A stretch of DNA of 64,000 nt, from the NCBI GenBank assembly GCA_021800165.1, contig JAJYZF010000016.1:1223-65222 (forward strand), given 5' to 3'. The stretch is from Planctomycetota bacterium (GTDB taxonomy: Bacteria; Planctomycetota; Phycisphaerae; WQYP01). The notes below the pieces were generated by a model. It was not told the origin of the DNA. It saw nothing but the letters and a program-made list of their open reading frames with translations, and searched no databases. The position numbers and the translations under genes were made by a program. This document shows, piece by piece, positions 4,494 through 58,358 of this stretch (its first letter is position 1; each line of letters opens with the position of its first letter).

Positions 4494-4523
4494 TCGCAAG
4501 ACTCTGCCATCCGCAGGCGACTT

Positions 4524-35306: not shown

Positions 35307-35423
35307 AACGTTTCCTTTCAATGAAACATAGCCGTTCTCATCTTTTCTTATAATTACGGATAGAGGCCGTGCAATCATCCACTTTTTGTGCTATACTTCT
35401 CCTGTTTCCTAAGTAAACCTAGG

Positions 35424-38557: not shown

Positions 38558-40216
38558 TCAATTCCCATTCTCCCGCCCCCCTGCGGCCCGAGCGTGCTCT
38601 TTCGCCCAAGTCTCCAACTCTGCCGGCTTGGCGGCATAAGCGCCGGTGGTCAACACCATCACCGTCGCGGGATCACCGGCAAATGCATCCCACCAATAAC
38701 GCGAGCCTTGCCCCCACAGTGGCCTCAACACTCCCCCACGAAACATCTTCGCCCGCGGCGTCACCCGTTTCAAAACCTGGCAGCGTGGCGGCCGCTGAAA
38801 CGTAAAATGAGGCCTATCGTCGTTGCCATGCGGCAACCCCCAATTCAACGCCACCCCGGTGATCCATGCCGAATAATCTCTGGATACCTCCGGCATGATC
38901 CGTATCCCCCTCCGCCGCCATTGCTCCAACAGCGTCAGGTATCCTTCCGGCGTAAAGCTCGGATACGCCATCCCACCGGTATCCCAGAATGCCATACTCA
39001 CACCATTCTCCGCCAGATTATCTCGCATCTTAAGCAGGTAGGATTGAGCCAAGGTGGCTTGAGACGCCATCGGCACCACCAGCGCCGGCAAGAACCTCTG
39101 ATCCAGCTTCCAAGCCGCGGCGCTTTGGTCAACACGCGGCGAAAAACGCGGATCAATCAGCACGCCCAAGGGGATGCCAACTCTACTGGCTGCCTTTAAT
39201 TGTTTGAACCAGGCGAGCCTTTCCGGAAACGGTTCATAAAAGCCCTTTCCATCAGGCGGCGCCCATTGAATATATCCCCGTGCCCCCAGCGATTTGGCCT
39301 GGGCCACCTGCTTCACCAGATCCGGAAACGGCCAGCCGGTGCAGGCCCATGGGCTTTCGGTTTTCAGCGCGGATGATTCCACCATGCCGTATCGCTTCAT
39401 AGTGGGCGCTAGCCGCAGCTCGCGATATTCGTCTAGCGCAATATCCGGCATTCCCCGTGCATACGATCGCACATAAAAATCCAGCGTGGTCTGGCGTCCC
39501 TTGCTTAAATTCAGATAGCTATGCACCCGCGGCCGACACACGTTTCCATCTATATGCCAGGAACAACCCGACTGCCGCAGTCGGTCATCAAAAAAATCAA
39601 CACTCACACCCGCCCCGCTCCGCGCATCATAAAACACCACCAGAGCCGAATAGCGGTAATAATCTTCCCCGTCATCGCCGTGGCCTGCCCGCCACGCATA
39701 CCCCCTCCCACCGCAACAGGAATCGAGCACTCGGGTATCCGCCGGTGCCCGTGCGGTGAATTCCGGCAAATCAAAAGAGATCGTGCGAATATTAAACCGA
39801 AAGCCGTTGCCCACACGCAACCGCACATGCACGGGCTGATCACCCCGGCCAGCCTGGTGAATCTCTACCCAGACGCGCACACTGCCGTGGCCGCCAATCC
39901 ATAGTTGCTCCAGCACAGAGTGTTTTTCACCGCTGGATTGGCACATAAAATCCGATACCCCAAACAGATCGCGGACCAGATGGCCCGCCTGGTTTAGATG
40001 GTCGGCCATCGCGTTGTGCGCCTGCAAAGCGGCGACGGTAAAGCCGCGTTGCCGGTCCGCCGCCGATACCAGCCGGAAACCTGTTCCAGACGCCTCCGCT
40101 CGTGCCGGGCCATACCCGCCGACCGCCGCGATACCGGCAAAGCCAGTGGCCACCAGAAATTTCCGCCGCGCTATCCGCCGCCCTTCTGCGTCTCTGAGGT
40201 TATGGTTATTTGTCAT
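38558..40216 (-). CDS. Tat-exported protein, uncharacterised paralog family member 1 (putative GH-A-like TIM-barrel glycoside hydrolase)
   Basis: Tat motif RRKFLVATGFAGIAAVGG. Family blocks: CCGGRGYAW, YYRYSALVVFYD, GYIQWAPPDGKGFYEPFPERLAWF, GIPLGVLIDPRFSPRVDQSAAAWKLDQRFLP, YLLKMRDNLAENGVSMAFWDTGG, GIRIMPEVSRD and PRCQVLKRVTPRAKMFRGG. Confidence 0.85.
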   Translation of the reverse strand: MTNNHNLRDAEGRRIARRKFLVATGFAGIAAVGGYGPARAEASGTGFRLVSAADRQRGFTVAALQAHNAMADHLNQAGHLVRDLFGVSDFMCQSSGEKHSVLEQLWIGGHGSVRVWVEIHQAGRGDQPVHVRLRVGNGFRFNIRTISFDLPEFTARAPADTRVLDSCCGGRGYAWRAGHGDDGEDYYRYSALVVFYDARSGAGVSVDFFDDRLRQSGCSWHIDGNVCRPRVHSYLNLSKGRQTTLDFYVRSYARGMPDIALDEYRELRLAPTMKRYGMVESSALKTESPWACTGWPFPDLVKQVAQAKSLGARGYIQWAPPDGKGFYEPFPERLAWFKQLKAASRVGIPLGVLIDPRFSPRVDQSAAAWKLDQRFLPALVVPMASQATLAQSYLLKMRDNLAENGVSMAFWDTGGMAYPSFTPEGYLTLLEQWRRRGIRIMPEVSRDYSAWITGVALNWGLPHGNDDRPHFTFQRPPRCQVLKRVTPRAKMFRGGVLRPLWGQGSRYWWDAFAGDPATVMVLTTGAYAAKPAELETWAKEHARAAGGRENGN

Positions 40217-40294
40217 CCTGTTGATCCCGCAAAAAGACTCTCTTCCGGGATCAGCAGCCGTCCAGCCCGCCAACCAGAACGCCCACTGCCCGCC

Positions 40295-42016
40295 TTAGCT
40301 GCGATGATGTTTCGCCCATACATCAAACACCGACGCTCTAATCAGCGGTATGCCAAAGCCGCCGCCTCCCACCACATCCCACCAATACGTATTGCCCTGA
40401 TGCGTGGTATTCGGGATATCGCCGCTGATAAACAACTTGGCTTTGGGCGTCACCCGCCGCCACACCTGGTACCGCGGTGGATGAGCCAACGAAAACAGCG
40501 GGCCGCCATAAACCGCTTCCTTGGCTTTCAACAAAGCGCCACGCAATTCAAACACGTTCAGGATGCCGGCATAGGTAGTCCCTGTGATAAACGCCGCATG
40601 ATCGCGCACCGCCTCCTGCAAAATGGTGATGCCCCCCCTTTTCCACTGGTACAGCAAGTTAAGGTATTGCTCCACTGTGGCATGCTTGTACGGCAAACCA
40701 CCCGTATCCCAAAACGCCATGCTCACGCCGTTGGCCACCAGGTTGTCCCGCATTTTAAGCAGGTAAGCCTCCGCCGACGCAGCGCCATAGGCCATTGGAG
40801 CGACATGATTCGGCAAATAGCGACGGTCCAGCGCCCAATGCTTGGCCCTTTGATCCAGTCGCGGTGATTCATTCGGGTCGATCAGCACCCCCAGCGGTAT
40901 GCCAAGCTTGCTGGCTTTTTTTACCCCCGCAAACCACTCAAACCGCTCCGGAAAAGGTTCGTAATCCCCCTCACCGTCCGGGGCCGCCCACTGAATATAG
41001 CCATGCGAACCGAGCGCCTTGGCCCGGGCCACCGCCTTGACAATGTTGCCATCCAGCGGCCAGCCGCTGGAGGTCCACGGCCCGGTTGTTTCCAAGCGGC
41101 CTTCCGGAATACCGTAACGCGCCATCAGCGGCATCAGCCTTTGCGTGCGATAAGCATCCAGGGCCATATCCGGCAATCCTTGAGCATATTTCTTCATGCG
41201 AAAGCCAAAATCCGCGGCGCAGCCTTTATCCAAAACAAAGCAGTTGCAGTCCAACCAGGGCCGACATTCTTTTCCACTTACATTCCAATGCAGTTCAAAA
41301 TTGCGCAGTCGGTCGTCAAAATACTCCACGCACACACCCGCCGTGCTCCGTTGGTCATAGTAAACCACCAGCGAAGACGATCGGAAATATCCCAAGCCAT
41401 CGTTACAAACCCCGTCGCCCCAGTTCCAATCCCGCTCGCGTCCGCCGCCAAACGCATCCAGCACCCGCGTCTGCTCCGGAGCCGGCGCCGTAATCGTGGG
41501 CATCCGAAACGTGATGCTCTTGAGATCAAACGCCCACCCATTTTCCACCCGGGAATGAAAAACCAATTCTTGGCCGGGAGCCTGATGAATATCCGTGTAC
41601 ACACGCACATGACCGGTGGTATCGGCCCACACCTGCTCAACAACATTCCCCTGCGCACGGCTGGATTTACATACAAATTTCAGACCAAAGGTATCTTGAA
41701 TTAAATGGCCGGAGGAATCCACATAAGCCGCCGGCTCCGGTCCCGGTTTGGCCGGCCCCCGTCCGATGCGATCCTTCAAGGGGTTCACCGCCACCGCCCC
41801 AAGAACCGCGAATCCATCCTTCTTATCCGCCGGCGAAGCCAGGCCAAACTCATAACCAAGGTGTAGCCCCTGTTCAGGAACCACCGCGTGCGGAACCGGT
41901 TGGCCATTCCACAGCGGCTGCGCCCGCAAAGTGCCCGCCCCCGCCGCACCAGCCGCAGCCAGCGCCGCCGACACCAAAAATTCACGCCGCGACATCGAAC
42001 TCATTTTACACCCCAT
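40295..42016 (-). CDS. Tat-exported protein, paralog family member 2
   Basis: SRREFLVSAALAAAGAAGAG. Same conserved blocks: GYIQWAAPDGEGDYEPFPERFEWF, LLKMRDNLVANGVSMAFWDTGGLPY and GITILQEAVRD. The start is ambiguous between 42016, 42004 and 41995. Confidence 0.85.
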   Translation of the reverse strand: MGCKMSSMSRREFLVSAALAAAGAAGAGTLRAQPLWNGQPVPHAVVPEQGLHLGYEFGLASPADKKDGFAVLGAVAVNPLKDRIGRGPAKPGPEPAAYVDSSGHLIQDTFGLKFVCKSSRAQGNVVEQVWADTTGHVRVYTDIHQAPGQELVFHSRVENGWAFDLKSITFRMPTITAPAPEQTRVLDAFGGGRERDWNWGDGVCNDGLGYFRSSSLVVYYDQRSTAGVCVEYFDDRLRNFELHWNVSGKECRPWLDCNCFVLDKGCAADFGFRMKKYAQGLPDMALDAYRTQRLMPLMARYGIPEGRLETTGPWTSSGWPLDGNIVKAVARAKALGSHGYIQWAAPDGEGDYEPFPERFEWFAGVKKASKLGIPLGVLIDPNESPRLDQRAKHWALDRRYLPNHVAPMAYGAASAEAYLLKMRDNLVANGVSMAFWDTGGLPYKHATVEQYLNLLYQWKRGGITILQEAVRDHAAFITGTTYAGILNVFELRGALLKAKEAVYGGPLFSLAHPPRYQVWRRVTPKAKLFISGDIPNTTHQGNTYWWDVVGGGGFGIPLIRASVFDVWAKHHRS

Positions 42017-42062
42017 ATTTCAGCACATTCCAGCAACCATCGTCGCCCACCCGCCGCACCGC

Positions 42063-43724
42063 CTAACCATCCCTATGCTCCTTAGCCCAGCTTACCAGTT
42101 GTGCCGGCTGCGGGACGTACACTCCTGCACTCAAAAGCAATATTGTTGTGGGATCGCCATTGAAGGCGTTCCACCAATGAGGATTACCTGCCAGCGTAGG
42201 CGGGTTGATACCGCCTCGGAACATTTTCACATTTGGCGTAACCCGCTTCAAAATCTGGCATCGTGGGGGGGTGGCAAAAGTAAAAAGTGGGCCACCATAG
42301 ACTCGTGTGGAACTCGGAAGTCCCCAATTGAATGCGACGCCCGTTATCCAACTGCTGTGATCGCGGGAAGCCTCCGGCATAATGCTGATACCGGCTTGTT
42401 TCCATTGCCGCAACAAGGTCAAAAACTGTTCCGGAGTCCAGCCCTTATTGGGCAATCCTCCGGTATCCCAGTACGCCACCGTCACACCATTGGCGGCCAA
42501 GTTGTCGCGCATCTTCAGCAGATAGGCCTGCGAAGCGGCGGTACACGCCAGCGGGGTCATGCCCATTGGCACGTATTTCTGGTCCAGTTTCCAAGCCGCG
42601 GCGCTCTGCCCGATCATCGGCGAAAAATTCGGATCAATCAACACGCCCAACGGTACGCCCAGTTCACTGGCCTTTTTTACTCCCGAAAACCAGCCGATCC
42701 TCTCCGGAAATGGCTCATATTGTGGAATGCTCGGCGGGGCCCACTGAATATACCCTTTGGCCCCCAAAGATTTGCAATATTCCACCATTTTCGGCAAATT
42801 ACCGCCATTGGGCCAACCACTTTGCGCCCACGGACTGGTAGCCTTAAACGCTGGCGACTCCGGCATGTCATAGCGTTTCATAAATGGTGCCAAACTGTAA
42901 GTACGGTAGTCGTCTAAGCCAATTTCCGGCATCCCATGGCTATAAGCGCGCATGCCAAAATCAAAAGTCGCCCTGCGCCCCTTTTGCAGCGAAAAATAAC
43001 TGCAATCCAGCCGCGGCTGGCATTGCCCCCCATGCGTGTCCCAATGCAGTTCGAAGTTCCTCAGCAAATCGTCAAAATATTCGACTGCCACCCCCGCCGT
43101 GCTGCGCCGATCATAAAATGCCGCTACGGACGAATACCGGTAGTACCCTAGGCCATCATTGGCCCTTCCGTTCGCCCACCTCCGCTCCCGACCGCCGCAA
43201 CATCCGTCCAGGACGGCGGAATGTTGCGGATCAGGACACAGCACCATCGGTAACTGAAACGTAAGCCCTCTGATGTTGAAGGCCCAGCCATTGTAAACTT
43301 CCACACGAAACCGCAGCGCGTCGCCTTTTTGATCAATCCGCGCATGAATATGCACGTGCCCGTCGGTGTCCTGCCATACCTGTTCCCATGTGCCGCCCTG
43401 GCCGCGTCTGGCCTTGCACACAAATTTGATATTAAAACTCTCTTCCACCAGGTGGCCACCGGTACCCATCGCCGCTGGCATGGGTACGCCCAGCCGCTTG
43501 CCATGCTTGGCCTTAGCCCCAATATGATCACCCATCGGGTTGTGGACCGAGGCCCCCTTCACCGCAAAGCCCAGAAGCCTGTCCATGGGAGAAACCACTC
43601 GCCATCCCCTTCCAGCACCCACCGCCACGGCAGTATCCGTCGGCGAAGCCGCCGCCACATACGGCCCGGCCGCCACCGTCGCCGCAACCGCGCCGGCCAC
43701 CACAAGAAAATCCCGGCGGCTCAT
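42063..43724 (-). CDS. Tat-exported protein, paralog family member 3
   Basis: MSRRDFLVVAGAVAATVAAG. Same blocks: GYIQWAPPSIPQYEPFPERIGWF, LLKMRDNLAANGVTVAYWDTGGLPNKGW and GISIMPEASRD. Confidence 0.85.
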   Translation of the reverse strand: MSRRDFLVVAGAVAATVAAGPYVAAASPTDTAVAVGAGRGWRVVSPMDRLLGFAVKGASVHNPMGDHIGAKAKHGKRLGVPMPAAMGTGGHLVEESFNIKFVCKARRGQGGTWEQVWQDTDGHVHIHARIDQKGDALRFRVEVYNGWAFNIRGLTFQLPMVLCPDPQHSAVLDGCCGGRERRWANGRANDGLGYYRYSSVAAFYDRRSTAGVAVEYFDDLLRNFELHWDTHGGQCQPRLDCSYFSLQKGRRATFDFGMRAYSHGMPEIGLDDYRTYSLAPFMKRYDMPESPAFKATSPWAQSGWPNGGNLPKMVEYCKSLGAKGYIQWAPPSIPQYEPFPERIGWFSGVKKASELGVPLGVLIDPNFSPMIGQSAAAWKLDQKYVPMGMTPLACTAASQAYLLKMRDNLAANGVTVAYWDTGGLPNKGWTPEQFLTLLRQWKQAGISIMPEASRDHSSWITGVAFNWGLPSSTRVYGGPLFTFATPPRCQILKRVTPNVKMFRGGINPPTLAGNPHWWNAFNGDPTTILLLSAGVYVPQPAQLVSWAKEHRDG

Positions 43725-43830
43725 CGCGTCCTCCGATACGTACGACCGTCGGCGCGTTACTGCCATTATCAACTCCTGCAATTAAAATCACCCACCCCTC
43801 CGCAGCGCGTCGGTGGTGGATTAACACAAA

Positions 43831-44859
43831 TTACGTCCCGCTGTGAAACGAAAACTTTTTGATATTCTCCGTTGCCTGGCACGCCGTGGTCCCACCGGTG
43901 ATACCCACCCAGCCGGTTTTGGATCCCAGCAGCTTGGTGATGCTTTCCGGCAGTTTCACCTTATAGCTGTAGACGCCGGTACCATTGGCCTTAAGCCCAC
44001 CGTGTGCCTGCACCGCCTTGAACGTTAAACGGTTTTTACCATCGTAGGAAATAGTAATCTTCACCGGGGCATTAAATGCGCTGAAATTCACCGTACCTGT
44101 GGAATGCAGACCTGACAAACCGGATGGATAATAATCAGGCCGTTTCACCCCCCCCTTCGGACTCTGATAAGAACAGGCCAACCCCACGTTGTTGTACTGC
44201 CATTTTTTCCCCGTGTAGTAGCAGTCCGTGCGAATGCCGATCCCCACACTGGCGGCCGGCATGGTTTGTTGCGGCCATTTTCCCATCAATATCCCGCGCC
44301 CGTTCCAAGCCGGACTGATCAAATGAGTTCCCGCCGGGTTATTCTCAAGCACAACAAAAAAGCCCGATCCCGGAGCCCCGGCCACACCCTTGGCCAGCGC
44401 CGTGGGACCGTGATAATTTTTAGACGGCATGTCCCAGATGAACTCCATGGTCCAAGGCTTGCCCACCACCTGCTTGGCGTCAAACCACACCGCCGCACTC
44501 GCACCCTGGTCCGCCCAGTGCGTCAGGTTGATCAGGGGACTGCGACTATATCTAAAGGCCGGTGGGGCCTCGCCACCTTTGTAGGAAGCAACAGTCGGCG
44601 GCAAGAACGTATTGTATTTGTTGGCCGCTCCCTCTATATAATTTATCGTAACCGTGCCATTATCATACGAATAGAGTTTTTTACTGGGTGTGGATGGCGG
44701 AGACTTTGTAAAATCCGCGGGCGTCGCCGATCTACCGAACCCCGCTAAATCCGCCTGAGCAGCGGAAGTGGGCATGCAGATCGCCGCCCCGACCAGACAT
44801 GTTCCCACCAACACCACATGTTGCCATCTCTCGGTATGTCGCACCCGTGCCCTTGACAT
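43831..44859 (-). CDS. Secreted L-type-lectin/concanavalin-like domain protein (no PEP-CTERM)
   Basis: Signal peptide, then ADLAGFG...YSYDNGTVTINY...WFDAKQVVGKPWTMEFIW...GFFVVLENN...ASVGIGI...GTVNFSAFNAPVKITISYDG..LTF...WVGITGGT. This is a legume-lectin-like block order. AAGGA RBS. Confidence 0.7.
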   Translation of the reverse strand: MSRARVRHTERWQHVVLVGTCLVGAAICMPTSAAQADLAGFGRSATPADFTKSPPSTPSKKLYSYDNGTVTINYIEGAANKYNTFLPPTVASYKGGEAPPAFRYSRSPLINLTHWADQGASAAVWFDAKQVVGKPWTMEFIWDMPSKNYHGPTALAKGVAGAPGSGFFVVLENNPAGTHLISPAWNGRGILMGKWPQQTMPAASVGIGIRTDCYYTGKKWQYNNVGLACSYQSPKGGVKRPDYYPSGLSGLHSTGTVNFSAFNAPVKITISYDGKNRLTFKAVQAHGGLKANGTGVYSYKVKLPESITKLLGSKTGWVGITGGTTACQATENIKKFSFHSGT

Positions 44860-44978
44860 AATTTTCCTTTCCGAGTCTTCGCTATACGCGCCATCCACGA
44901 CCGCCAGTCGCGCCGCAGGTATTTCAGAATATAGCAGGAGATCAACCTGGTTTCAAATCACAGCATATCCGCCCGGCT

Positions 44979-46067
44979 TCACCGCAGCCGTCGCCCAGGC
45001 CATGCAATCAAGCCCAGCCCACCAAAGGCCAGCAGGCTAACCGTGCCCGGCTCGGGCAATGTGCTACCACCGGTTACCAAAGTAAAGTTACTGATGCTCT
45101 CATTGGCCTGATTCCCCGAGTTCCCACCGGTAATGCCCACCCATCCACCCGGCCCCCCAAGCAAGTCAGCCAGCGTGGTGGGCAACGCCAAGCTGTATTC
45201 GAAGGCGTCGGCCCCCGCGTTTTGCGTCGCCAAAAACGTGAGCGTTCGGTTGCCGTCATACGAAATAGTCACATGCACTGGCGTACTGAAGGCATCAAAA
45301 TTGACTGTCCCGGTGGATCCAGGCCCAGCCCCATCCGGATTTTCCACAATCTGATTCACGCTGCCACCTGCGCTCTGATACGCTACTGTCAGCCCATAAT
45401 CACTTGCCGGCACCACCTCTCCCGTGCTGGAATTATAATTGCCCGTATTGTTCACGCCGATACCCACGCTCGCCGCCGGTGCCTGGCCCGTGTAGCCGTC
45501 AATAAATCCCCGGCTGCCGCCATCCCAACCACCCGTAGTCAAACCCGAAACGGTAGGAAACAGTTGCGTGCCGGCGCTGTTGTTCTGCACCACAAAAAAG
45601 AAACCCAAGCCCGGATATTTATCATTGCCCAAGCCCGACGATTGCATATTCCAATCAAAATTGGCCGTCCATGGCCCCCCCACCGCCTGCTTGGCGTCAA
45701 ACCAGGCCGCAGCGCTATCACCCATCGTACCCGCATACGTGAGATTAAATAATTCCGCCCCGGTATTCCCCCCGTTATCCGGCACCGTTGGCGGCACAAA
45801 TGTGTTGTAGCTGTTGACGGTGGATTCCTGATACACCGCGGTAAAAGTCCCGTTGTCATAGGAATAAACATTATTGTTCGGGGCCGTCGGGGCCGGATTG
45901 GCGTAATCCGCCGGCACCGTGCTCACGCCAAAGCCGGAAAGATCCGCCCGCGCGGATCGCCACCCCCCGGCCAGCATCAGCAATCCGGCCATCACACCAG
46001 CCGCACTGGAAAGCACCGGCTTGACTGTAGCGCGGCCCTTTAAGCCCATTACCAATTGTTTTCTCAT
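44979..46067 (-). CDS. L-type-lectin-like domain protein with PEP-CTERM sorting signal
   Basis: Same lectin-like blocks as 43831..44859, plus a C-terminal LPEPGTVSLLAFGGLGLIAWPGRRLR. AAGGAGAG RBS. Confidence 0.75.
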   Translation of the reverse strand: MRKQLVMGLKGRATVKPVLSSAAGVMAGLLMLAGGWRSARADLSGFGVSTVPADYANPAPTAPNNNVYSYDNGTFTAVYQESTVNSYNTFVPPTVPDNGGNTGAELFNLTYAGTMGDSAAAWFDAKQAVGGPWTANFDWNMQSSGLGNDKYPGLGFFFVVQNNSAGTQLFPTVSGLTTGGWDGGSRGFIDGYTGQAPAASVGIGVNNTGNYNSSTGEVVPASDYGLTVAYQSAGGSVNQIVENPDGAGPGSTGTVNFDAFSTPVHVTISYDGNRTLTFLATQNAGADAFEYSLALPTTLADLLGGPGGWVGITGGNSGNQANESISNFTLVTGGSTLPEPGTVSLLAFGGLGLIAWPGRRLR

Positions 46068-46099
46068 AACGCTCTCCTTAAATGATCAAGCCCCAACCA

Positions 46100-47005
46100 T
46101 CACGCCACCCGACGCCGCGGCATCAGAAACAGCCCCAACCCAACACCCAATATCCACACCGATCCCGGTTCCGGCACGGCCGCAATGGCGGCCTGCGCAT
46201 CGGTCAAGTTCATCAGCGCCTGAATCTGCGGCAGGTAATACGGCACCAGCACAGCTCCCGATTCATAACCATTGATGAAGCTGTTGGTACCAACCAATGC
46301 CAGCGCGCCATCGACTACGGCAAATTCCGGTCCACCCGAATCGCCCGGCTGCAAATATGCTTCCTCAAGCCCGCCGGGCAGCGGATCAAAACCATCCGAA
46401 TACAGCGACTCCGAAATTTCCGTCCCGTTTTGCACTCCCAACGGCTGCATTGCGGTAGCGGCAATATGGTTGTAACCCAGCCGGTTCGGCACGCCGTATA
46501 CATAAATACCAAGTCCGTCATAATTACCACTGGCGCTATAGGCGATAGGGTAATACGCAATATCCGCCGAAGCCGGTATCGGCGCAGTTAATTCACCCAG
46601 CCACAAATCGGTATAGTTGCCGGCCGCATCGATAATCGGCGTGCCGCTGGCCACGATGCCCGTGTAGCTTGGCCCGTTGGCGTTGTTGGTGCTATAAAAG
46701 GTTAAAGCCGTTCCCGGCCCCGGATACGCGTGCGAAGCGCTGACAAAATACTGCGGTGATATCATCGTGCCCCAAACGCCCGTCCCCGCGGCTCCACTGG
46801 AATTGCCCACCCCCGAAAAATTATAGCCCTCCCCTAAAAAGCTCGTACTGTTATTAAACCGGTCGTTAACGCTCGGCGAATACCCCTGCACCTGCATGTC
46901 CGCCCCGCACCGCCCCGCACCCACCAGTAGCATCACGCCGACCGCCGCCAGCAAAACACCCCGCGCCACTGCAAACCTCCGTATGCCGCCATCAATCCTC
47001 TCCAT
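46100..47005 (-). CDS. Trypsin-like (S1 family) serine peptidase with PEP-CTERM sorting signal
   Basis: Catalytic-triad contexts VSASHAY (His), DLWLGEL (Asp) and QPGDSGGPEF (Ser), then a C-terminal AVPEPGSVWILGVGLGLFLMPRRRVA. The start is placed at the ATG at 47005. The longer track ORF begins in an AT-rich TATATATAT tract. Confidence 0.7.
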   Translation of the reverse strand: MERIDGGIRRFAVARGVLLAAVGVMLLVGAGRCGADMQVQGYSPSVNDRFNNSTSFLGEGYNFSGVGNSSGAAGTGVWGTMISPQYFVSASHAYPGPGTALTFYSTNNANGPSYTGIVASGTPIIDAAGNYTDLWLGELTAPIPASADIAYYPIAYSASGNYDGLGIYVYGVPNRLGYNHIAATAMQPLGVQNGTEISESLYSDGFDPLPGGLEEAYLQPGDSGGPEFAVVDGALALVGTNSFINGYESGAVLVPYYLPQIQALMNLTDAQAAIAAVPEPGSVWILGVGLGLFLMPRRRVA

Positions 47006-47090
47006 AAAATAATTTAAGATATATATATTACAATATGTTTTTTCGGTCTCCATACTGTACTCCTCACATCCATTGCCAATCACCAGACCA

Positions 47091-48026
47091 TTACGGCAAC
47101 GTCGGCACCGTTGTCGGCGTCACCCAGCCCTGGCACCAGTTCTGCTTCCACAAATCCGCCAGCTTGACCGAAGCCGCATGCCCGTCCAGGTACGAAACAT
47201 TAATCGAACCACCATGACGGTTGATATCCAGCCGCCACATCTGCGGGTACGGTACATAGCTTGATACGCCGTAATCGCCGTTCAGGTTCGCCGGAGGCGG
47301 TGCGCTAGGCCCCCAGTAAGACGACCCCGGCTCATACCATGGCGAAGCATCCAGGTAAATACAATCAAAAAATACCGGTATTGTCGCGCTGCTCACGCTG
47401 GCGCTGCTTAGATTCGCCGGCCATGGATCATTAGCCCCCAGACACACTTCCCAGCCTGACGGCGGCGCCGGATTGTACAACCAGGCGTTAAAGCCGTAAC
47501 TGCCCACATATTTCGCCGGGAATGGATAACCCCAGCCATCCGTCCAACTTTGCGTGGAAGTACCCCAACCCAAAGACGTCCAGTTAAAAGGTTCGCTGGT
47601 GGTGGTGGATGGACACACCAGCACCGGCGCACTCTGAAAATTCACATTGTTCCAAGTCGTTTGATTCGGTTGTACGGCACTGTAGTAATTTTGCAGATAC
47701 GCCGGCCAATAATAGTCCGCCCAGGTGCCAATGGACGGATCTGTCGCCGCGGTCGGCAGCGGCTGCCACGAAATGGTCTGGCCGTCGTAATCGCTTTGGT
47801 ATTCCTGAAAAGCCGTGCCCAGTTGGCGCTCGTTAGACAGGCATACCACCGAATCCGCATCTTGCCGCGCTGCCGCCAGCGCCGGCAGCAGCAGGGCTAT
47901 CAAAATGGCGATAATGGAAATCACCACCAAAAGTTCAACCAGCGTAAAACCACGATCCCAGCGTGCCGAGGACCGCCAGAGGAGAGAATGACGCTCGGCG
48001 GAAGAATCAAATGAGCCTATTTCCAT
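47091..48026 (-). CDS. Prepilin-type N-terminal cleavage/methylation domain protein, DUF1559 (H-X9-DG) family, copy 1
   Basis: [30 protein letters not shown] after a 26-aa leader. The C-terminal half has [17 protein letters not shown] (H-X9-DG). Confidence 0.8.
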
Positions 48027-48165
48027 GTTCGTGCTCCACCAAAGCCAACATGCCGACATGCCCACCGCGCCCCTTCTTGCGCTCGTTGCCCCGATGCTCA
48101 CCCGGCCGCCGTCAAGCCAAGCTCCCCGCCGACGCGATAACGGCGGCGGGAAGCTACATATTGGC

Positions 48166-49029
48166 CTACGCCGTTCGCCGCCGCTTCAACATTAGCAGCC
48201 CCAAACCACCGAGACCAAGCAATCTCAAATTCGCCGTTTCCGGGACCGGGGTAATTTGCAAACCGGATACGGTTGCCTCGCTCCCGTATTCGGTGCTCGA
48301 TCCGGTTCCCGAATAAATGTAAGCAAGCGAAATATTGCCGTTCGCATCCGGAGCCAGAGTGAATTTGTAATAATCATTACCCGAAACCCACGCGGAGGTG
48401 TTGGCGTCGGTGTACGTGTTGACGGTGCCTGTTAGTACGGTGGCACCGGTGACGGTATAGGTGGTGTCATCCTGCCCATTTTCAACGTAGAGATTATATT
48501 CCAGCGACGGATCCAGTCCACCAATAGTCGCAAAGACTACGTTTCCTCTGAAAGGGCTGACAGTTGTCCCGTACGTCCCCATGTTACCGTTGAGCAGGTT
48601 AAAATTCACGGTCGTGGACGGACTTAAGTACGGTACGTCGTTGGCCCCATTGCTGCCAATGTATGTCCCGCTACCGCCCCCGGTTCCGGCTACGGTAAGC
48701 GTTGCACCGCTCGCACCGCCCGTTACGTTGTCAACGCCAACCCCCGTTGAGCCAGTCGTCACATTAACCGCCACAGTGTTGGTGGTACTGCCTTCCGTTA
48801 CGGTGTTCCAATAGTCTGTAGCTAAACCGATCACTCCTGCGCCACTCGCTTGGCCGCTGACAGTCGACTGGTTAGTGCCATAAAACTGCACGTCGACCAA
48901 CCCACTGGTAAACGCTGCATTGGCCGCATGGCCACCCATAGCCATCGCCGCCGCCCCGATGGCCGCCGCCCCCAGGGCCCACACCATCCCGTTGCTCTTG
49001 ACCCGTTCGGTCCCGTTGTTGGTAAGCAT
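48166..49029 (-). CDS. Thr/Gly/Asn-rich PEP-CTERM protein (variant VPET...RRR tail)
   Basis: N-terminus [33 protein letters not shown], shared with 58359..59249. C-terminus [40 protein letters not shown]. Confidence 0.8.
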
Positions 49030-49135
49030 AACACTCTCCTTATAAAAAATGCGCTTACTATCTCACCGCGATTCGCTTACCGCGATACACCGCCCGGCAA
49101 ACCGCCTCGCCTAAAACGCCATTAAACCGTGCATT

Positions 49136-49164
49136 ACTATAACACACGCCCAAGCCCGTGTCAA
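49136..49164 (-). promoter_or_regulatory. Sigma70-type promoter (TTGACA, 17-bp spacer, TATAGT) for the PEP-CTERM gene, followed by a ~100-nt conserved leader
   Basis: Minus-strand sense cTTGACAcgggcttgggcgtgtgtTATAGTaatg. The -35 lies at 49159..49164 and the -10 at 49136..49141. Conserved copies occur at 59356..59384 and 61739..61767. Confidence 0.6.
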
Positions 49165-49356
49165 GTTGCACACCCAAACCAGAGTATACCATACGAAGCC
49201 CAGCCATTGCAACCCAATTCTAACTTAAAAATTCTCGGCCCCAATTCGCACCACCGCGCCTTGACTGCCCAACATCCACCCCAACACAATATACCAACTC
49301 AACCTCGTTTCCCGTTCCCACCCGTCCTGCCATCGCCCCCCGCCGCACCGCCTAAC

Positions 49357-50722
49357 GAGATACTATCAAAAGTTGTGGACGGAGTAAAAGAGGCAGCGTA
49401 ACCTAAAGGTTGGTTTCAATGTTCTTTTTTAGGAGTACGCCACCATGAGTAATAGTATGAACGAAAACATGAAGTTGGCAATCCCCTTCGCCGGTGATGC
49501 TTTGACCGAGGTGATCGCGCAAAGCGCCAAGGAGATTCTGGCCGCCGCCGTACAGGCGGAAGCCAGACAATGGATTGCCGAACGCTCTGATCTTCGGGAC
49601 CAGCGTGGCCACCGTCTGGTGGTGGCCAACGGCTATCTGCCGGAGCGGCAGGTTCTTACCGGTATTGGGCCAGTGTCGATCAAACAGCCCCGCATCGAAG
49701 ATCGGCGTCCCGCGGAACAGCGCGAAAAGCTCAATCGCCGGATACTGCCTGCGTATCTGCGTCGCACCAGCAGTATTGATGAAGCCATCCCCTGGATGTA
49801 TCTCTATGGCATAAGCACCAACGACATGGGGGATTCGCTCAAGGCTCTACTGGGACCCGCCATTGAGCATTTATCGCCCCATACCGTCAGCCGGCTGGTC
49901 AGCCAGTGGCAAACGCAATATGCCCACTGGAACCAACGTTCTCTGGCGGATGGACAGTACGTGTATCTCTGGGCGGATGGGGTGCATTTCAATGTACGTC
50001 TGGGCGATGACAATTCCGCCTGTATTCTGGTGATTCTGGGAGCCACGGCGGATGGAAACAAGGAGATTCTGGCCATCGCCGACGGCTACCGGGAAAGTGC
50101 GCAATCCTGGAAGGCCGTGCTTCTGGACCTGAAGAACCGCGGACTGCAGGCACCAAAACTGGCGATTGGAGATGGTGCCATGGGTTTCTGGGCGGCCATG
50201 GAAGAGGTGTACCCGTCCACAAAAGGCCAGCGCTGCTGGGTGCACAAAACGCTCAATGTATTGAGCTATTTTCCGAAGAATCTGCATGGTCAGGCCAGGG
50301 ACAAGATACATCAGATTTGGATGGCGGCAACGGAAGCGGATGCCCACAAGGCCTTTGATCTGTTCGTGCAAACCTACCAGGCTAAATACCCCAAAGCAGT
50401 AGCATGCTTAGGCAAAGATCGTGAAGCGTTATTGGCTTTTTATTATTTTCCAGCAGAGCATTGGGTGCATATCCGCACCACCAATCCGATCGAAAGTATC
50501 TTTTCAACTGTGCGGTTACGCCACGACAAGACGCGGAACAATGCCAGTCGGAAAGCCTGTCTGGCGATGGTATTCAAGCTATGTCAGAGTGCCCAGAGGG
50601 GCTTTCAGAGACTCAATGGCTCGGAATTAATCCCGGAGGTATTGGCCGGAATCAAATTCGAAAACGGAGTCAAACAAATTGCCGCCTGATTGCCCCAATC
50701 CACAACATTTGACAGTAACTCC
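49357..50722 (+). mobile_element. IS256-family insertion sequence (1366 bp) with imperfect ~26-bp terminal inverted repeats and 8-bp target duplication CGCCTAAC
   Basis: IRL GAGATACTATCAAAAGTTGTGGACGG (49357..). IRR reverse complement GAGTTACTGTCAAATGTTGTGGATTG (..50722). CGCCTAAC occurs at 49349..49356 and 50723..50730. The uninterrupted target ...CCGCCGCACCGCCTAACCAT.CC.ATGCTCCTTAGCCCA... is seen intact at 42051..42088, downstream of paralog 3. Confidence 0.85.
49445..50689 (+). CDS. IS256-family (mutator-type) transposase
   Basis: 414 aa with the motifs LWADGVHFNVR, NKEILAIADG, CWVHKTLNVLSY and TTNPIESIFSTVRLR (the IS256 C-terminal signature). Confidence 0.9.
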   Translation: MSNSMNENMKLAIPFAGDALTEVIAQSAKEILAAAVQAEARQWIAERSDLRDQRGHRLVVANGYLPERQVLTGIGPVSIKQPRIEDRRPAEQREKLNRRILPAYLRRTSSIDEAIPWMYLYGISTNDMGDSLKALLGPAIEHLSPHTVSRLVSQWQTQYAHWNQRSLADGQYVYLWADGVHFNVRLGDDNSACILVILGATADGNKEILAIADGYRESAQSWKAVLLDLKNRGLQAPKLAIGDGAMGFWAAMEEVYPSTKGQRCWVHKTLNVLSYFPKNLHGQARDKIHQIWMAATEADAHKAFDLFVQTYQAKYPKAVACLGKDREALLAFYYFPAEHWVHIRTTNPIESIFSTVRLRHDKTRNNASRKACLAMVFKLCQSAQRGFQRLNGSELIPEVLAGIKFENGVKQIAA

Positions 50723-50725
50723 CGC

Positions 50726-52387
50726 CTAACCATGCCCATGCTCCTTAGCCCACTGGCCCAACTCCGATTTTGCCGGCTCATTGTTGGCACCCAGTAAAAA
50801 CATCGTGGTGCCATCCGTTTCCATCGCCTCCCACCAATGCCGCTGGCCCGTGCCCAACAACGTCGCCGCCGTTACCCCACCCCGAAACATCTTCACATTG
50901 GGGGTCACACGCCGCAGCACTTGACAGCGGGGCGGATGATCAAACGTAAACTGTGGACCGCCATACACCTTCACCGAATCCGGCAAATTCCAGTTGATCG
51001 CCACACCCGTAATCCACCCGGTATGGTCCCGCGAAACCTCCGGCATAATGCTGATTCCGCCCTGTTTGAACCGCCGCAACAGCGTGAGGTTTTGCTCCGC
51101 TGTGGCAAAACCGTAGGGCAGGCCGCCCGTATCCCAAAACGCCACCCGCACGCCGTTGGCCGCCAGATTATTCCGCACGCGCAACAGGTAAGATTCCGCC
51201 ATCGGATTGCCATAAGCCATCGGGGCCGCACGATCGGGAAGGAACTTTTTATCCAATGCCCAGTGGGCGGCGTTTTGATCGATTCGCGGCGAAAAATTCG
51301 GATCAATCAATACCCCCATGATCATACCCGACCGGCTGGCCTGCTTCACCTGGGCAAACCACGACAACCGCTGGGGAAATGGCTCATAAATACCCTGTCC
51401 ATCCGGCGGCGCCCATTGAATATACCCATGGGCACCCAGCGCCTTGCATTGGGCCACCTTTTTTTCCAGACTGGGAAATGGCCAGCCCGTGGCCGCCCAG
51501 GGATTACTGGTGGCAAACACCGGCGATTCCGGAATCTCATAACGGGCCATGAATGGCACCAGACGCTCCTGCCGATAATCATCCATCGCAATTTCCGGCA
51601 TGCCGTGGCTGTAGTCACGCAGGCGAAAGCCAAATTCGGCACTCTGGCCCTTTTCAATGGTAAAGCAACCGGAGTCCAGCCATGGACGACACTCATCGCC
51701 CCGCGTTTGCCAGTGCAACTCAAAATTGCGCAACTCCTCATCAAAATATTCCACGCACACCCCGGCGGTGCTCCGCCGGTCATAAAACATCACCAGCGAT
51801 GAATACCGGTAATAACCCAAACCATCATTGCCCACTTCATTTTGCCACACCCGCTCCCGTCCGCCGCAGCACGCATCCAGGATCGCCCCGTGCGCAGGAT
51901 ATGGCGCGGTAAATGCCGGCAGGTCAAAGTTAATGCCCCGAATCGAGAATCCGTACCCATTTTCCACGCGGATTTTGAAATCCAGATTGCGTCCGTGTTG
52001 CCGCACTCGCGCATGAATCCGCACCTGCCCCCCCGCATCCTGCCACAGTTGCTCCAGCACCCCGCCCTTTTGCCCACTGGATTTACATACGCACCGGACC
52101 GTAAAAACATCTTGCGCCAAATGCCCCTTGCTATTGATATGGTCCCCCATCGCGTGGTGCGCTTGCACACTACGCACGGCGAATCCGCGGGTCTTATCCG
52201 CCGGCGCAACGATCTGAAACTCACGCCCCGCGTGCAGCAATTGACCGGCAACGCCGCGTGTACCCGCCGCGCCGGCCGCCGCCCCCGCGATTCCCGCGAT
52301 GGCCAAAAACTTACGCCGCGAAACACCCGCCGCATCGCGTCTGGTCTCCCCCGTCCAACCGTTGCCGCACTTGTTTGCATCCATCAT
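50726..52387 (-). CDS. Tat-exported protein, paralog family member 4
   Basis: SRRKFLAIAGIAGAAAGAAG. Same blocks: GYIQWAPPDGQGIYEPFPQRLSWF, LLRVRNNLAANGVRVAFWDTGGLPY, GISIMPEVSRD and PRCQVLRRVTPNVKMFRGG. The stop codon lies inside the right IS256 target duplication. Confidence 0.85.
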   Translation of the reverse strand: MMDANKCGNGWTGETRRDAAGVSRRKFLAIAGIAGAAAGAAGTRGVAGQLLHAGREFQIVAPADKTRGFAVRSVQAHHAMGDHINSKGHLAQDVFTVRCVCKSSGQKGGVLEQLWQDAGGQVRIHARVRQHGRNLDFKIRVENGYGFSIRGINFDLPAFTAPYPAHGAILDACCGGRERVWQNEVGNDGLGYYRYSSLVMFYDRRSTAGVCVEYFDEELRNFELHWQTRGDECRPWLDSGCFTIEKGQSAEFGFRLRDYSHGMPEIAMDDYRQERLVPFMARYEIPESPVFATSNPWAATGWPFPSLEKKVAQCKALGAHGYIQWAPPDGQGIYEPFPQRLSWFAQVKQASRSGMIMGVLIDPNFSPRIDQNAAHWALDKKFLPDRAAPMAYGNPMAESYLLRVRNNLAANGVRVAFWDTGGLPYGFATAEQNLTLLRRFKQGGISIMPEVSRDHTGWITGVAINWNLPDSVKVYGGPQFTFDHPPRCQVLRRVTPNVKMFRGGVTAATLLGTGQRHWWEAMETDGTTMFLLGANNEPAKSELGQWAKEHGHG

Positions 52388-52389
52388 AA

Positions 52390-53964
52390 TTACATCCCTT
52401 TGTCTCGACCATGTTCTTTGGCCCAGGTTTCAAGCTCACCGTTGGCGTCCACACACAAAACCGGCACGCTCACGCCATCGTCTTCCAACACATCCCACCA
52501 ATATCGACCGGCCCGTTGTTCCACTTTTCCCACACCACCTCGAAACATCCGGGCGTGGGGTGTCACGCGCCGCAACACCGGATACCGCGGTGGATCACCA
52601 AATGGAAACGCCCGGCCATAATACCACCCCAGCGTGGCCCCGGTCACCCACGCTGTAAAATCTTGCGCGCCTTCTGTAATAATCATGATGCCGGCCTTTT
52701 TCCATTGATATAAAAGTGTTAAATACTGCTCCGGCGTAGTGTTGCACTGCTGGTTATAGCCGTTATAGCCGCCGCAATCCCAATAGGCTACGCTCACCCC
52801 GTTGGTCGCTAGATTATCACGCATTTTATACAAGAAGGACTGCGCTTCGGGCCGGGCCACCGCCATCGGCACCACCCGGTTTGGCACAAATTTCCGGTCC
52901 AACGCCCAATGCGCCGCGCTTTGATCGATCCGCGGAGAATACCACGGATTGATCAGCACGCCCACCGGAATACCCAACTTACTGGCCGCTTTCATCTGCA
53001 CAAACCACTCAAGTCGCTCCGGAAATGGTTCGTAATAGCCCTGCCCATCCGGCGGTGCCCATTGAATGTAACCGTTCGCCCCCAGCGACTTGCAGTAGGC
53101 CACGTCCTTGACCAGATCATTCTTCGGAAAAGGCCAGCCGCTGCTCGCCCATGGACCTGTGGTTTCATAAGGGGGAGCTTCCGGAATCCCCAGCCCAGCC
53201 ATAAACGGCACCAGCCGTTGCCGACGATAGTCATCCAGCGCCGCCTCCGGCAGCCCCTGTCGATAAGAGGTCATGCAAAAAACCACGTCGGCGGTCTTAC
53301 CCTTTTCCAATCCCAGCGTGTAACCCAAAAAGGGCTGAAAGCCCGCCGGATCGGCGAACCAGAACACGCCGGATTGGGCATGACGCAAAAGTCGGTCGAA
53401 ATATTCCACACACATACCTTCGCCGCTGCGGCTGTCAAAAAACACCGCCAGCGGCGAATACCCTCCACCCCCGCATTGACCAAAACCATGCCCACCCAAG
53501 CGCCGAATGTTGCCTCCCCAGTACGTGTCCATGACCGCAATACCCTCGCCCGGCACGATACGCAAGGGCAAACGGAAATTAATTGTCCGGATGTCGAACG
53601 CATAACCATTTTCCACCCGCAAACGCACCGTTACCCGCTCTCCCGCCGCAGCCAGTTGCGCCGGCAGCAGCGCCGCCTCCACCGGATCCCTCTTCGGATA
53701 TTGCTCGCTGCAAATGCTCACCTGCACCTGCACATGGCCGCCGACATCCTGCCACATCTGCTCCCATGCCCCCCGCCGCCCCCGGCTGGATTTGCAAACA
53801 AACTTCCTGATCTCAAAAAGTCTTGGCTCCAGATGCCCCTTCGCATCCAGCCGATCCCCCAATGGATCGTGCGCTTTGACGCTCTCCACCGCAAAGCCGT
53901 GCTGAATATCGGTGGGCGGATAAAATTGCCCCCATCCGCCGCGTCTGCTATTGGTCGTCGCCAT
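52390..53964 (-). CDS. Paralog family member 5 (divergent, no signal peptide, canonical I-I-T-E motif)
   Basis: MATTNSRRGGWGQ... has no hydrophobic signal. Same blocks: GYIQWAPPDGQGYYEPFPERLEWF, LYKMRDNLATNGVSVAYWDCGG, GIMIITEGAQD and PRYPVLRRVTPHARMFRGG. AAGGAG RBS. Separated from member 4 by 2 bp. Confidence 0.85.
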   Translation of the reverse strand: MATTNSRRGGWGQFYPPTDIQHGFAVESVKAHDPLGDRLDAKGHLEPRLFEIRKFVCKSSRGRRGAWEQMWQDVGGHVQVQVSICSEQYPKRDPVEAALLPAQLAAAGERVTVRLRVENGYAFDIRTINFRLPLRIVPGEGIAVMDTYWGGNIRRLGGHGFGQCGGGGYSPLAVFFDSRSGEGMCVEYFDRLLRHAQSGVFWFADPAGFQPFLGYTLGLEKGKTADVVFCMTSYRQGLPEAALDDYRRQRLVPFMAGLGIPEAPPYETTGPWASSGWPFPKNDLVKDVAYCKSLGANGYIQWAPPDGQGYYEPFPERLEWFVQMKAASKLGIPVGVLINPWYSPRIDQSAAHWALDRKFVPNRVVPMAVARPEAQSFLYKMRDNLATNGVSVAYWDCGGYNGYNQQCNTTPEQYLTLLYQWKKAGIMIITEGAQDFTAWVTGATLGWYYGRAFPFGDPPRYPVLRRVTPHARMFRGGVGKVEQRAGRYWWDVLEDDGVSVPVLCVDANGELETWAKEHGRDKGM

Positions 53965-57234: not shown

Positions 57235-57348
57235 TAAACGAACTCCGTTAATACACCCACTAACGACACCGAAATCCCGATGCCGCACGAACTGCCAATC
57301 AGGCACCATCCCCCCGTCTGCTGCTCACCTCTCTCGCGCAGCGCCGTG

Positions 57349-58218: not shown

Positions 58219-58358
58219 GTTCGTGCTCCAGTAAAGCCAACATGCCCACACGCCCGCCGCGCCCGTCCTTGTGCTCGTTTCTCCGATGCTCAACCGGCCG
58301 CCGTCAAGCCAAGCTCACCGCCGACGCAATAACGGCGGCGGTGAGTTCTCTTACCAGC

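Follow-up and report, generated by a model that had tools for sequence, protein, structure and literature searches.

The window, the whole 64,000-nucleotide stretch of Planctomycetota DNA analysed here, raises the question of what five paralogous proteins encoded within a single locus do, and whether they act on glycans at all. All five genes are intact open reading frames on the minus strand, at exactly the coordinates given in an earlier note on this DNA (Table 1). For paralog 1, the listed TTG start is probably too long. Stop codons are found upstream of the ATG at position 40216 in the ortholog from a related Planctomycetota MAG (L002), and the public gene call also gives 552 aa; this ATG is therefore probably the true start. 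In a sequence comparison of the five proteins, identity to member 1 is 48-53% and identity to member 4 is 50-56%, with 140 or more invariant columns. The genes had been regarded as one tandem array. Instead, they form a group of three (members 3-2-1) and a group of two (members 5-4) lying approximately 6.9 kb apart, with five other genes and an insertion sequence of the IS256/Mutator family in the gap. A gap of 2 nt separates the stop codon of paralog 5 from the paralog 4 start.

Table 1. Positions of the five paralogs, their neighbours and selected features of paralog 4 in the window
Feature	Position	Strand	Remarks
AraC-family regulator (cupin domain + HTH_18)	35388-36284	+	opposite strand, converges on the cluster end
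Sodium:solute symporter family transporter	36302-38278	-	658 aa; directly downstream of paralog 1, co-directional; position kept in the related MAG
Paralog 1	38558-40273	-	571 aa from TTG start as listed; Tat motif ARRKFLV
Paralog 2	40295-42016	-	573 aa; 569 aa in public gene call; Tat motif SRREFLV; strand-5 motif ILQEA
Paralog 3	42063-43781	-	572 aa; 567 or 553 aa from alternative starts; Tat motif SRRDFLV
Five accessory genes between paralog groups	43831-49029	-	
IS256/Mutator-family insertion sequence	49362-50716	+	transposase 49445-50689
Paralog 4	50726-52387	-	553 aa; member modelled; Tat motif SRRKFLA
Paralog 4, (beta/alpha)8 barrel	50738-51499	-	residues 297-550; AlphaFold2 model; eight alternating strand/helix units
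Paralog 4, Asp454 codon	51026-51028	-	
Paralog 4, Glu450 codon (IMPEV)	51038-51040	-	directly after barrel strand 5; predicted general acid/base
Paralog 4, Asp419 codon (WDTGG)	51131-51133	-	directly after barrel strand 4; predicted catalytic nucleophile
Paralog 4, Glu335 codon ("YEP" Glu)	51383-51385	-	loop after barrel strand 2
Paralog 4, beta-sandwich	51608-52219	-	residues 57-260; AlphaFold2 model
Paralog 4, RR codons	52313-52318	-	
Paralog 5	52390-53964	-	524 aa; no signal peptide
Upstream co-directional genes of second module	54100-63897	-	

The family is uncharacterised, as had been stated before: HMM scans revealed no Pfam or NCBIfam model for it. Scans of the five paralogs and 42 family members against Pfam, NCBIfam and PHROGs returned nothing for the protein body, and even at E <= 10 none of the 42 members matched a Pfam model, those of clan GH-D (Melibiase/GH36) included. 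When the family profile was compared with all PDB sequences at E <= 10, only chance matches were obtained, among them no GH36, GH27, GH31, 5opq or 5wzn chain. The only name on record for family members is "hypothetical protein", most being unnamed, and no description of the paralog family was found in the literature. The family has some 45 representatives in a set of 1.84 billion protein clusters. Used in a word-indexed search for homologs, the wide alignment found nothing past eight close clusters, and an exhaustive HMMER search widened the family beyond these. The scan for related loci with the close alignment led to one GTDB species only. Compared with the orthologs in the related MAG, dN/dS is 0.14 for paralog 1 (computed from the ATG start), 0.06 for paralog 2 (95% amino acid identity) and 0.16 for paralog 3. 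Judged by these values of 0.06-0.16, the paralogs are functional genes under strong purifying selection.

The AlphaFold2 model of paralog 4 obtained with a 42-sequence alignment has a mean pLDDT of 85.4 and a pTM of 0.84. It superseded a model from 12 close sequences, in which the barrel was poor (pLDDT 66.9). The model comprises a beta-sandwich and, in the C-terminal half, a (beta/alpha)8 barrel. Such a barrel had been expected from catalytic signatures resembling those of clan GH-A, and this part of the proposal stood, as did the invariance of two Glu residues among the five paralogs. The placement of these residues did not. According to the secondary-structure map of the model, strand 4 consists of residues 413-418 and is followed by Asp419; the Glu of the "YEP" motif, taken for a strand-4 acid/base of the NEP type, is Glu335 and belongs to the loop after strand 2. 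The Glu of the IMPE/IITEG motif, taken for the strand-7 nucleophile, is Glu450 and follows strand 5. Strand 7 (residues 499-503, KMFRG) is not followed by a conserved acid, and even the close paralogs lack an invariant Asp or Glu in the stretch from residue 462 to residue 533. The nearest structures are also not those of GH-A enzymes. The criterion set beforehand was the position of the two Glu residues at the ends of strands 4 and 7, and by this criterion the assignment of the paralogs to the beta-glycosidases of clan GH-A is already refuted; we consider it extremely improbable.

The acids that do map to C-terminal strand ends are Asp419, Glu450 and Asp454, at strands 4 and 5. The Asp nucleophile of clan GH-D, GH13, GH101 and GH129 enzymes has the same strand-end placement. 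We infer from the secondary-structure map, and not from a 3-D overlay, that Asp419 and Glu450 lie in the active-site pocket. All three residues are invariant in 12 close members. In the distant members (27-29 sequences, 22-30% identical) Asp419 is retained in 90%, Glu450 in 96% and Asp454 in 96%, and several Trp and Tyr residues of kinds typical for sugar-binding pockets are conserved across the same range of identity. Paralog 5 keeps the complete set in the motifs WDCGG, IITEG and AQD. The position of Glu335 is occupied by E in 55% of the distant members and by N in eight of them, so that this residue is not a family-wide catalytic acid. The strand-like motifs around the second Glu (IMPEV, ILQEA, IMPEA, IMPEV and IITEG) are present as originally read. 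The same is true of the long shared blocks GYIQWAPPDG..YEPFP, GVLIDP.FSPR.DQ, LLKMRDNL..NGV..A.WDTGG and RVTP..KMFRGG, but not of CCGGRER, which had been listed as nearly invariant. This site reads CCGGRGY, FGGGRER, CCGGRER, CCGGRER and YWGGNIR across the members, with only GG invariant.

The solved structures closest to the model are glycoside hydrolases, at 7-12% identity; the BFVD viral fold library gave only weak partial matches (TM <= 0.28). The predicted architecture matches that of the GH129 enzyme NagBb, the GH129-like enzyme DagB, GH36 and GH31, and more distantly that of GH13. For GH129 and DagB the fold similarity spans both domains of the model. DagB (ZGAL_3152; PDB 5opq), a GH129-like alpha-1,3-(3,6-anhydro)-D-galactosidase of Zobellia galactanivorans, shares about 9-10% identity and no HMM-detectable similarity with the paralogs. 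Its residues Asp486 and Glu517, validated by mutagenesis, are 31 residues apart (PMC5698469), which is also the spacing of Asp419 and Glu450 in paralog 4. DagB differs in carrying a C-terminal Ig-like domain, which the paralogs lack, and in drawing on an Asp (Asp202) of the partner monomer. The genes around DagB include one for an AraC regulator and others for transporters of the inner membrane (PMC5698469). The ORFs scanned in the window included no genes of the carrageenan pathway (sulfatases, GH127, dau genes). NagBb (PDB 5wzn/5wzp), an alpha-N-acetylgalactosaminidase of family GH129, is 10-12% identical to the paralogs, without a sequence-profile match. The catalytic pair of NagBb is Asp435/Glu478, a spacing different from that of Asp419 and Glu450, and the enzyme has a C-terminal domain that is missing from the paralogs.

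The GH36 and other clan GH-D alpha-galactosidases (TmGalA 1zy9/5m0x, AgaA 4fnr, FpGalNase 9awt) are likewise close known systems. As seen in the secondary-structure map, the likeness consists of an N-terminal beta-sandwich, a (beta/alpha)8 barrel and an Asp after strand 4. In GH36, GH27 and GH31 enzymes the acid/base follows strand 6 and is an Asp in clan GH-D, whereas the paralog family has no conserved acid after strand 6 and its acid candidate follows strand 5. The C-terminal beta domain of GH36 is also absent. The match to the alpha-amylase family GH13 of clan GH-H is limited to the barrel, with 217-269 residues aligned. The paralogs lack both the third catalytic Asp that GH13 enzymes have after strand 7 and the conserved GH13 sequence regions I-IV, and the arrangement of the N-terminal domain is unlike.

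Twin-arginine (Tat) signals had been ascribed to members 1-4. Each of these proteins indeed has an RR motif followed by an Ala/Gly-rich hydrophobic stretch, as do the orthologs (the motif criterion being S/T-R-R-x-F-L-K with a hydrophobic region after it), but only member 3 reaches a curated HMM cut-off. With TIGR01409 it scores 17.4 against a cut-off of 16.7, compared with 12.5 for member 1 and 14.8 for member 2; with Pfam TAT_signal it scores 20.2 against 22.7. Member 5 (MATTNSRRGGWGQFYPP), reported to be without a signal peptide, has neither a hydrophobic region nor a Tat motif and is predicted to be cytoplasmic. Elsewhere in the family, some members are fused to RTX or fn3 modules and have the N-terminal motif LExRxLL of planctomycetes, and further members have Sec or lipoprotein signals. 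Together with the Tat motifs, these features are consistent with an extracellular role across the family.

Both the related MAG and one public metagenome contig show synteny for the symporter and the AraC regulator near paralog 1. Of the five accessory genes, two encode paralogous proteins, one of 355 aa and one of 362 aa with a PEP-CTERM motif. The others encode a trypsin-like PEP-CTERM protein (327 aa), a prepilin-type N-methylation protein (336 aa) and a further PEP-CTERM protein (287 aa). The cluster had been described as embedded among PEP-CTERM proteins; some of the intervening products do end in this motif, but the 355-aa protein (43831-44898) does not. Those called lectin-like gave no Pfam, NCBIfam or PDB sequence matches. 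The IS256/Mutator element has 18-bp imperfect terminal inverted repeats (16/18) and is located 9 nt downstream of the paralog 4 stop codon; public metagenome contigs end within it. Upstream of the second group lie genes for a 1069-aa LamG-like protein, whose Laminin_G_3 and GH123_N matches are both below the Pfam cut-offs, a 314-aa prepilin-type protein sharing 52% identity with its 336-aa counterpart, PEP-CTERM proteins of 296, 280 and 355 aa, and another with 631 aa. The 1069-aa and 631-aa proteins were considered as divergent family members and rejected (hhalign probability <1%). The scans lent no support to the suggestion of a polysaccharide-degradation island for algal or sulfated polysaccharides. 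About 40 larger ORFs of the window were scanned, and they contained no sulfatase and no recognised glycoside hydrolase apart from the one sub-threshold GH123_N match. Directly within the cluster, no gene is recognisable as encoding a CAZyme, a sulfatase or a sugar-catabolic enzyme, and hence there is no pointer to the substrate. The window also holds an ABC-2/Wzt exporter, GT2/GT4 glycosyltransferases and a mannose-1-phosphate guanylyltransferase for polysaccharide synthesis and export.

We propose that the paralogs are retaining alpha-glycosidases of the alpha-galactosidase-like superfamily, built from a beta-sandwich and a barrel. For this reading, taken jointly with the mechanism and the export route, we estimate a probability of roughly 60%. 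Since such a fold is predicted in a rare and unannotated family, the paralogs represent a candidate new glycoside hydrolase family. They would hydrolyse an alpha-glycosidic bond by double displacement, with Asp419 after strand 4 as the putative nucleophile and Glu450 after strand 5 as the putative general acid/base. Asp454 may serve as a third carboxylate, which would either stabilise the transition state or bind a metal or the substrate. The Tat pathway would export paralogs 1-4 in the folded state, with paralog 5 remaining in the cytoplasm. The neighbouring sodium:solute symporter may take up the sugars or oligosaccharides set free, and the cluster may be under the control of the AraC-type regulator. 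The paralogs diverge from one another by roughly 50%, which suggests that they differ in the linkages or substrates they recognise. A glycan from the environment is one possible substrate, and a surface polysaccharide or exopolysaccharide of bacteria is another.

TIM barrels are also a scaffold for non-glycosidase chemistry, and transglycosylases occur among GH13, GH31 and GH36-type barrels. The paralogs might accordingly be transglycosylases, glycoside phosphorylases or polysaccharide-processing enzymes that act, together with PEP-CTERM/exosortase-type surface proteins, on the exopolysaccharide or surface glycans of the organism itself rather than in nutrient acquisition. The interleaving of the paralogs with PEP-CTERM and pseudopilin-like proteins and the exporter, glycosyltransferase and guanylyltransferase genes in the same window would fit such a role. 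So would the short family members found in phage-like loci, where the natural substrate would be bacterial surface polysaccharide. However, the biosynthesis genes are 5-30 kb off with unrelated genes between, the link between PEP-CTERM proteins and exopolysaccharide is an association only, and the adjacent symporter, the AraC regulator and the cytoplasmic paralog are better explained by catabolism. We regard this alternative as unlikely. Still less probable is that the proteins are non-catalytic and, while keeping a glycosidase-like fold, bind carbohydrate or have a structural role, for instance at a surface or in association with virions. In favour of this, some relatives are found within phage modules that look structural, or as fusions with Ig, fn3 or RTX modules. 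Against it stand the strong purifying selection, the cytoplasmic location predicted for one paralog, and the near-universal Asp/Glu/Asp set at barrel strand ends, together with the Trp and Tyr residues, in proteins only 22-30% identical.

The association with phages is one of gene context only: tblastn searches with P0011 and paralog 4 against 50,697 phage genomes and pattern scans of IMG/VR gave no match, and PHROG matches in neighbouring genes are sparse. The proposal of retaining alpha-glycosidases can be extended tentatively, at somewhat less than even odds. The family would then be a new sequence-defined glycoside hydrolase family with an alpha-galactosidase-like fold, an Asp (strand 4)/Glu (strand 5)/Asp set and an undescribed specificity. 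It would be concentrated in Planctomycetota as Tat-exported, RTX-fused and fn3-fused forms and would also be found on phages or prophages, depolymerising surface polysaccharides. The presence of five paralogs at this locus would then reflect a range of linkage specificities directed at a single complex alpha-linked glycan.

Planctomycetota play an important part in degrading recalcitrant glycans, and much of their enzyme repertoire is unannotated. The family described here is rare and without a Pfam, NCBIfam or PDB sequence match, yet it has a confident predicted glycosidase-like fold and a testable candidate catalytic triad, and its signal-less paralog 5 is an easy expression target. If active, the proteins would constitute a new CAZy family, probably with a new specificity, and a concrete case of the acid/base position diversifying in the GH-D/GH129/GH13 barrel. 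Possible phage-borne relatives would tie the family to bacterial surface polysaccharides.

The five paralogous genes are all found in the ORF listing as intact minus-strand reading frames, exactly where the earlier note had placed them. In a MAFFT alignment of the five members, identity to member 1 is 48-53% and more than 140 columns are invariant. The long shared blocks reported previously are present, and the motifs IMPEV, ILQEA, IMPEA, IMPEV and IITEG match exactly; of CCGGRER, described as a nearly invariant block, GG alone is invariant across the members. The listed TTG start of member 1 is probably too long and its first 19 codons untranslated, since this extension aligns to a stretch with three stop codons upstream of the ortholog in L002, a related Planctomycetota MAG, and public gene calls begin at the ATG at 40216, which gives 552 aa.

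Positions of the features discussed (window nucleotides, unless another contig or residues of member 4 are named)
Feature	Position	Strand	Remarks
Member 1	38558-40273	minus	571 aa as listed
Member 2	40295-42016	minus	573 aa
Member 3	42063-43781	minus	572 aa
Member 4	50726-52387	minus	553 aa
Member 5	52390-53964	minus	524 aa
Sodium:solute symporter	36302-38278		next after members 3-2-1
AraC regulator		opposite to paralogs	beyond members 3-2-1 and symporter
1069-aa protein	54100-57309	minus	directly upstream of member 5
ORF without family match	1211-4510	minus	sizeable
ORF without family match	21013-22632	plus	sizeable
ORF without family match	43831-46067	minus	sizeable
IS256/Mutator-family IS	49362-50716	plus	transposase 49445-50689; between paralog groups
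DDE_Tnp_1 transposase, IS4-like	14612-16240	minus	unrelated to IS256/Mutator element
ABC-2 permease and Wzt-type ATPase with Wzt_C domain (exporter); 1081-aa GT2-GT4 fusion; mannose-1-phosphate guanylyltransferase-like (ManC-like) gene; GT2/GT21 glycosyltransferase	6299-11774, 19691-20782, 30631-31854
Short family member	L013 6051-7412
Short family member	L006 7685-9160
Short family member	L010 3656-5074
Barrel strands 1-4 (model)	residues 297-300, 321-324, 356-361, 413-418
Barrel strands 5-8 (model)	residues 446-449, 462-466, 499-503, 528-533

The description of the family as uncharacterised was borne out. The conserved body has no Pfam match even at E <= 10, and a search of PDB sequences with the family profile gave no match. 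Among 5.8 billion proteins, a word-indexed search retrieved only eight clusters, comprising the window's own paralogs and close relatives. When 1.84 billion cluster representatives were searched exhaustively with a HMMER profile, 45 proteins were detected at E <= 1e-3 and 21 at E <= 1e-30, with 22-30% identity. Three low-ranking matches of this search (P0038, P0050 and P0051) were rejected as spurious, their HYR/Ig repeats matching one short stretch of the profile. Where members are named in any source they are called 'hypothetical protein'; most are nameless. Judged by these sequence searches, the family is extremely rare and unannotated in Pfam, NCBIfam, PDB and the other libraries queried.

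The structure of member 4 was modelled from 42 sequences with a mean pLDDT of 85.4 and a pTM of 0.84; a model from 12 close sequences was weak in its C-terminal half (pLDDT 66.9). The predicted protein consists of a beta-sandwich (residues 57-260), a long linker helix (265-282) and a C-terminal part of eight alternating strand/helix units. The Foldseek neighbours of the model include GH36 (E 1e-17), GH31, the GH129-like enzyme DagB (ZGAL_3152) of Zobellia galactanivorans and NagBb, an alpha-N-acetylgalactosaminidase of GH129, all with probability 1.00. Since identities are 7-12% and TM-scores 0.4-0.53, the predicted match is at the level of the superfamily.

The earlier note had tentatively regarded the paralogs as clan GH-A-like glycosidases with a putative catalytic Glu pair, expected at strands 4 and 7. 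The eight strand/helix units agree with the barrel it expected, but neither Glu lies where that clan has it, and neither of the two structural-neighbour lists contains a GH-A enzyme. The Glu of the YEP motif (E335) is located in a loop about 10 residues past strand 2, and among distant members this position is Glu in 55% only and Asn in eight. The Glu of the IMPE motif (E450) immediately follows strand 5. Because the two residues are not at strands 4 and 7, which the note itself had named as refuting its view, the GH-A reading was rejected. The polar residues conserved across 27-30 distant members are D419 (90%), E450 (96%) and D454 (96%), together with Y271, R272 and E287 of the linker; W226, W302, W325, Y334, W418 and W518 are the conserved aromatics. 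In the model, D419 of the WDTGG motif stands immediately after strand 4 and D454 at the start of the helix that follows E450, and no conserved acid is found after strands 6, 7 or 8 among the family members.

In the retaining alpha-glycosidases that belong to clans GH-D and GH-H and to GH101/GH129, the nucleophile is an Asp after strand 4, and the acid/base position in GH13 is a Glu after strand 5. We propose that the paralogs use retaining alpha-glycosidase chemistry, in which D419 would serve as the nucleophile and E450 as the acid/base. In DagB, Asp486 and Glu517, validated by mutagenesis, are 31 residues apart (PMC5698469), exactly the spacing of D419 and E450 in member 4, and the modelled pair may be equivalent to them in three dimensions. 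DagB is described as joining a distorted beta-sandwich to a TIM barrel, and its locus also contains transporters and an AraC regulator (PMC5698469); the predicted sandwich and barrel of member 4, and the AraC regulator and transporter near the paralogs, resemble this arrangement.

The genes do not form a single five-gene tandem array, as had been supposed. Members 3-2-1 form one contiguous group, in which 46 nt and about 21-78 nt separate the genes, and members 5-4 another, with a gap of 2 nt. The five genes between the two groups encode a 355-aa protein and its paralog of 362 aa, which is a PEP-CTERM protein, along with a prepilin-type N-methylation protein and two further PEP-CTERM proteins, one trypsin-like and one of 287 aa. 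A second accessory set upstream of member 5 is paralogous to this one and encodes a LamG-like protein of 1069 aa, a prepilin-type protein (52% amino acid identity to its counterpart), three PEP-CTERM proteins and a further one of 631 aa. The two paralog groups and the paralogous accessory sets indicate that the locus is composed of two paralogous modules, each with family copies at its end.

Segmental paralogy between the modules is also visible in the DNA, where 57349-61719 and 47805-49298 are 86-99% identical in stretches that cover 5′ ends of PEP-CTERM genes, PEP-CTERM tails and the initial parts of the prepilin-like genes. The 355/362/355b protein trio shares 39-48% identity. Gene conversion is suggested by the near-identity of the PEP-CTERM anchors in three upstream genes (PEPGALGLLAAGGLGMLLVKRRRT). 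The 1069-aa protein is unrelated to the paralog family, has no PDB sequence match and gives only sub-threshold Pfam matches (Laminin_G_3, E 0.003; GH123_N, E 0.002); it may be a further unclassified protein that acts on glycans. Neither the 1099-aa protein nor the 355/362-aa proteins match Pfam or NCBIfam, and the 362-aa and 539-aa proteins match no PDB sequence. Besides the five paralogs, the region holds many unannotated proteins.

Contigs of JGI metagenome 3300039716 and of an ENA assembly match the window at 99.9-100% identity and end inside the IS256/Mutator-family element. Among GTDB species representatives, only the Planctomycetota MAG JA3.bin18 has close relatives. Its orthologs of members 3, 2 and 1 (81%, 95% and 80% amino acid identity) are arranged as in the window, and it also carries the accessory genes and the symporter; the symporter and the AraC regulator are syntenic with the paralogs. 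The conserved order implies that the duplications are older than the split from the JA3.bin18 species. The dN/dS values between orthologs (0.16, 0.06 and 0.14 for members 3, 2 and 1) indicate that members 1-3 are functional genes under purifying selection. The IS256/Mutator-family element has 18-bp imperfect inverted repeats (16/18; ACTATCAAAAGTTGTGGA and ACTGTCAAATGTTGTGGA), ends 9 nt downstream of the member 4 stop codon and may be polar on downstream genes. Three independent metagenome contigs (L001, L003 and L004) all break within it, which suggests a multi-copy element. With the second, unrelated transposase, the region bears at least two kinds of IS.

Members 1-4 carry the Tat-type motifs ARRKFLV, SRREFLV, SRRDFLV and SRRKFLA, and a hydrophobic stretch rich in Ala and Gly comes after the motif in each. 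The Tat-signal HMM scores are borderline, and only member 3 passes a curated cut-off (TIGR01409, 17.4 vs 16.7). Member 5 was correctly described as having no signal peptide, its N-terminus being MATTNSRRGGWGQFYPP, without a hydrophobic region. Members 1-4 would be four periplasmic or extracellular isoenzymes of differing specificities, and member 5 a cytoplasmic enzyme finishing imported oligosaccharides.

The wider family shows three architectures: the Tat-signal type; proteins with the planctomycete N-terminal motif LExRxLL (LEPR-XLL / Planc_extracel; P0010, P0013, P0016, P0017, P0022 and P0042), in which RTX calcium-binding repeats or an fn3 domain lie between motif and conserved core; and short members (430-490 aa), of which some bear Sec or lipoprotein signals. 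Since the LExRxLL proteins occur beside other signal types, the family appears to employ at least three different export routes. Three short members (450-490 aa) are found in phage- or prophage-like contexts. On contig L013 the neighbours include an integrase and a DNA methylase together with DUF1064 and a P22-like small protein, and the flanking ORFs are 968 and 1059 aa long. L006 has a 1207-aa fn3 protein matching a 'tail' PHROG beside HNH and LexA-like genes, and L010 has genes matching PHROG families, one annotated as virion structural protein. Such members may be tail-associated depolymerases. As no relatives were found in 50,697 GenBank phage genomes, in a pattern scan of IMG/VR or in a structural search of BFVD, the link to phages is a lead and not a finding.

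The earlier suggestion of an algal or sulfated polysaccharide as substrate is without support, since the scanned window ORFs of at least 220 aa include no sulfatase or recognised GH, apart from the sub-threshold GH123_N match. A live alternative is that the paralogs process the cell's own surface glycans; genes for polysaccharide synthesis and export share the window with them, as do many PEP-CTERM proteins. The modelled fold and probable mechanism belong to a well-known superfamily, and the paralogs represent a candidate for a new GH family, in which a predicted fold like that of GH-D/GH129 is combined with a GH13/DagB-like Asp-Glu layout. For enzyme discovery the family offers a clean, testable target; it is not a conceptual surprise.
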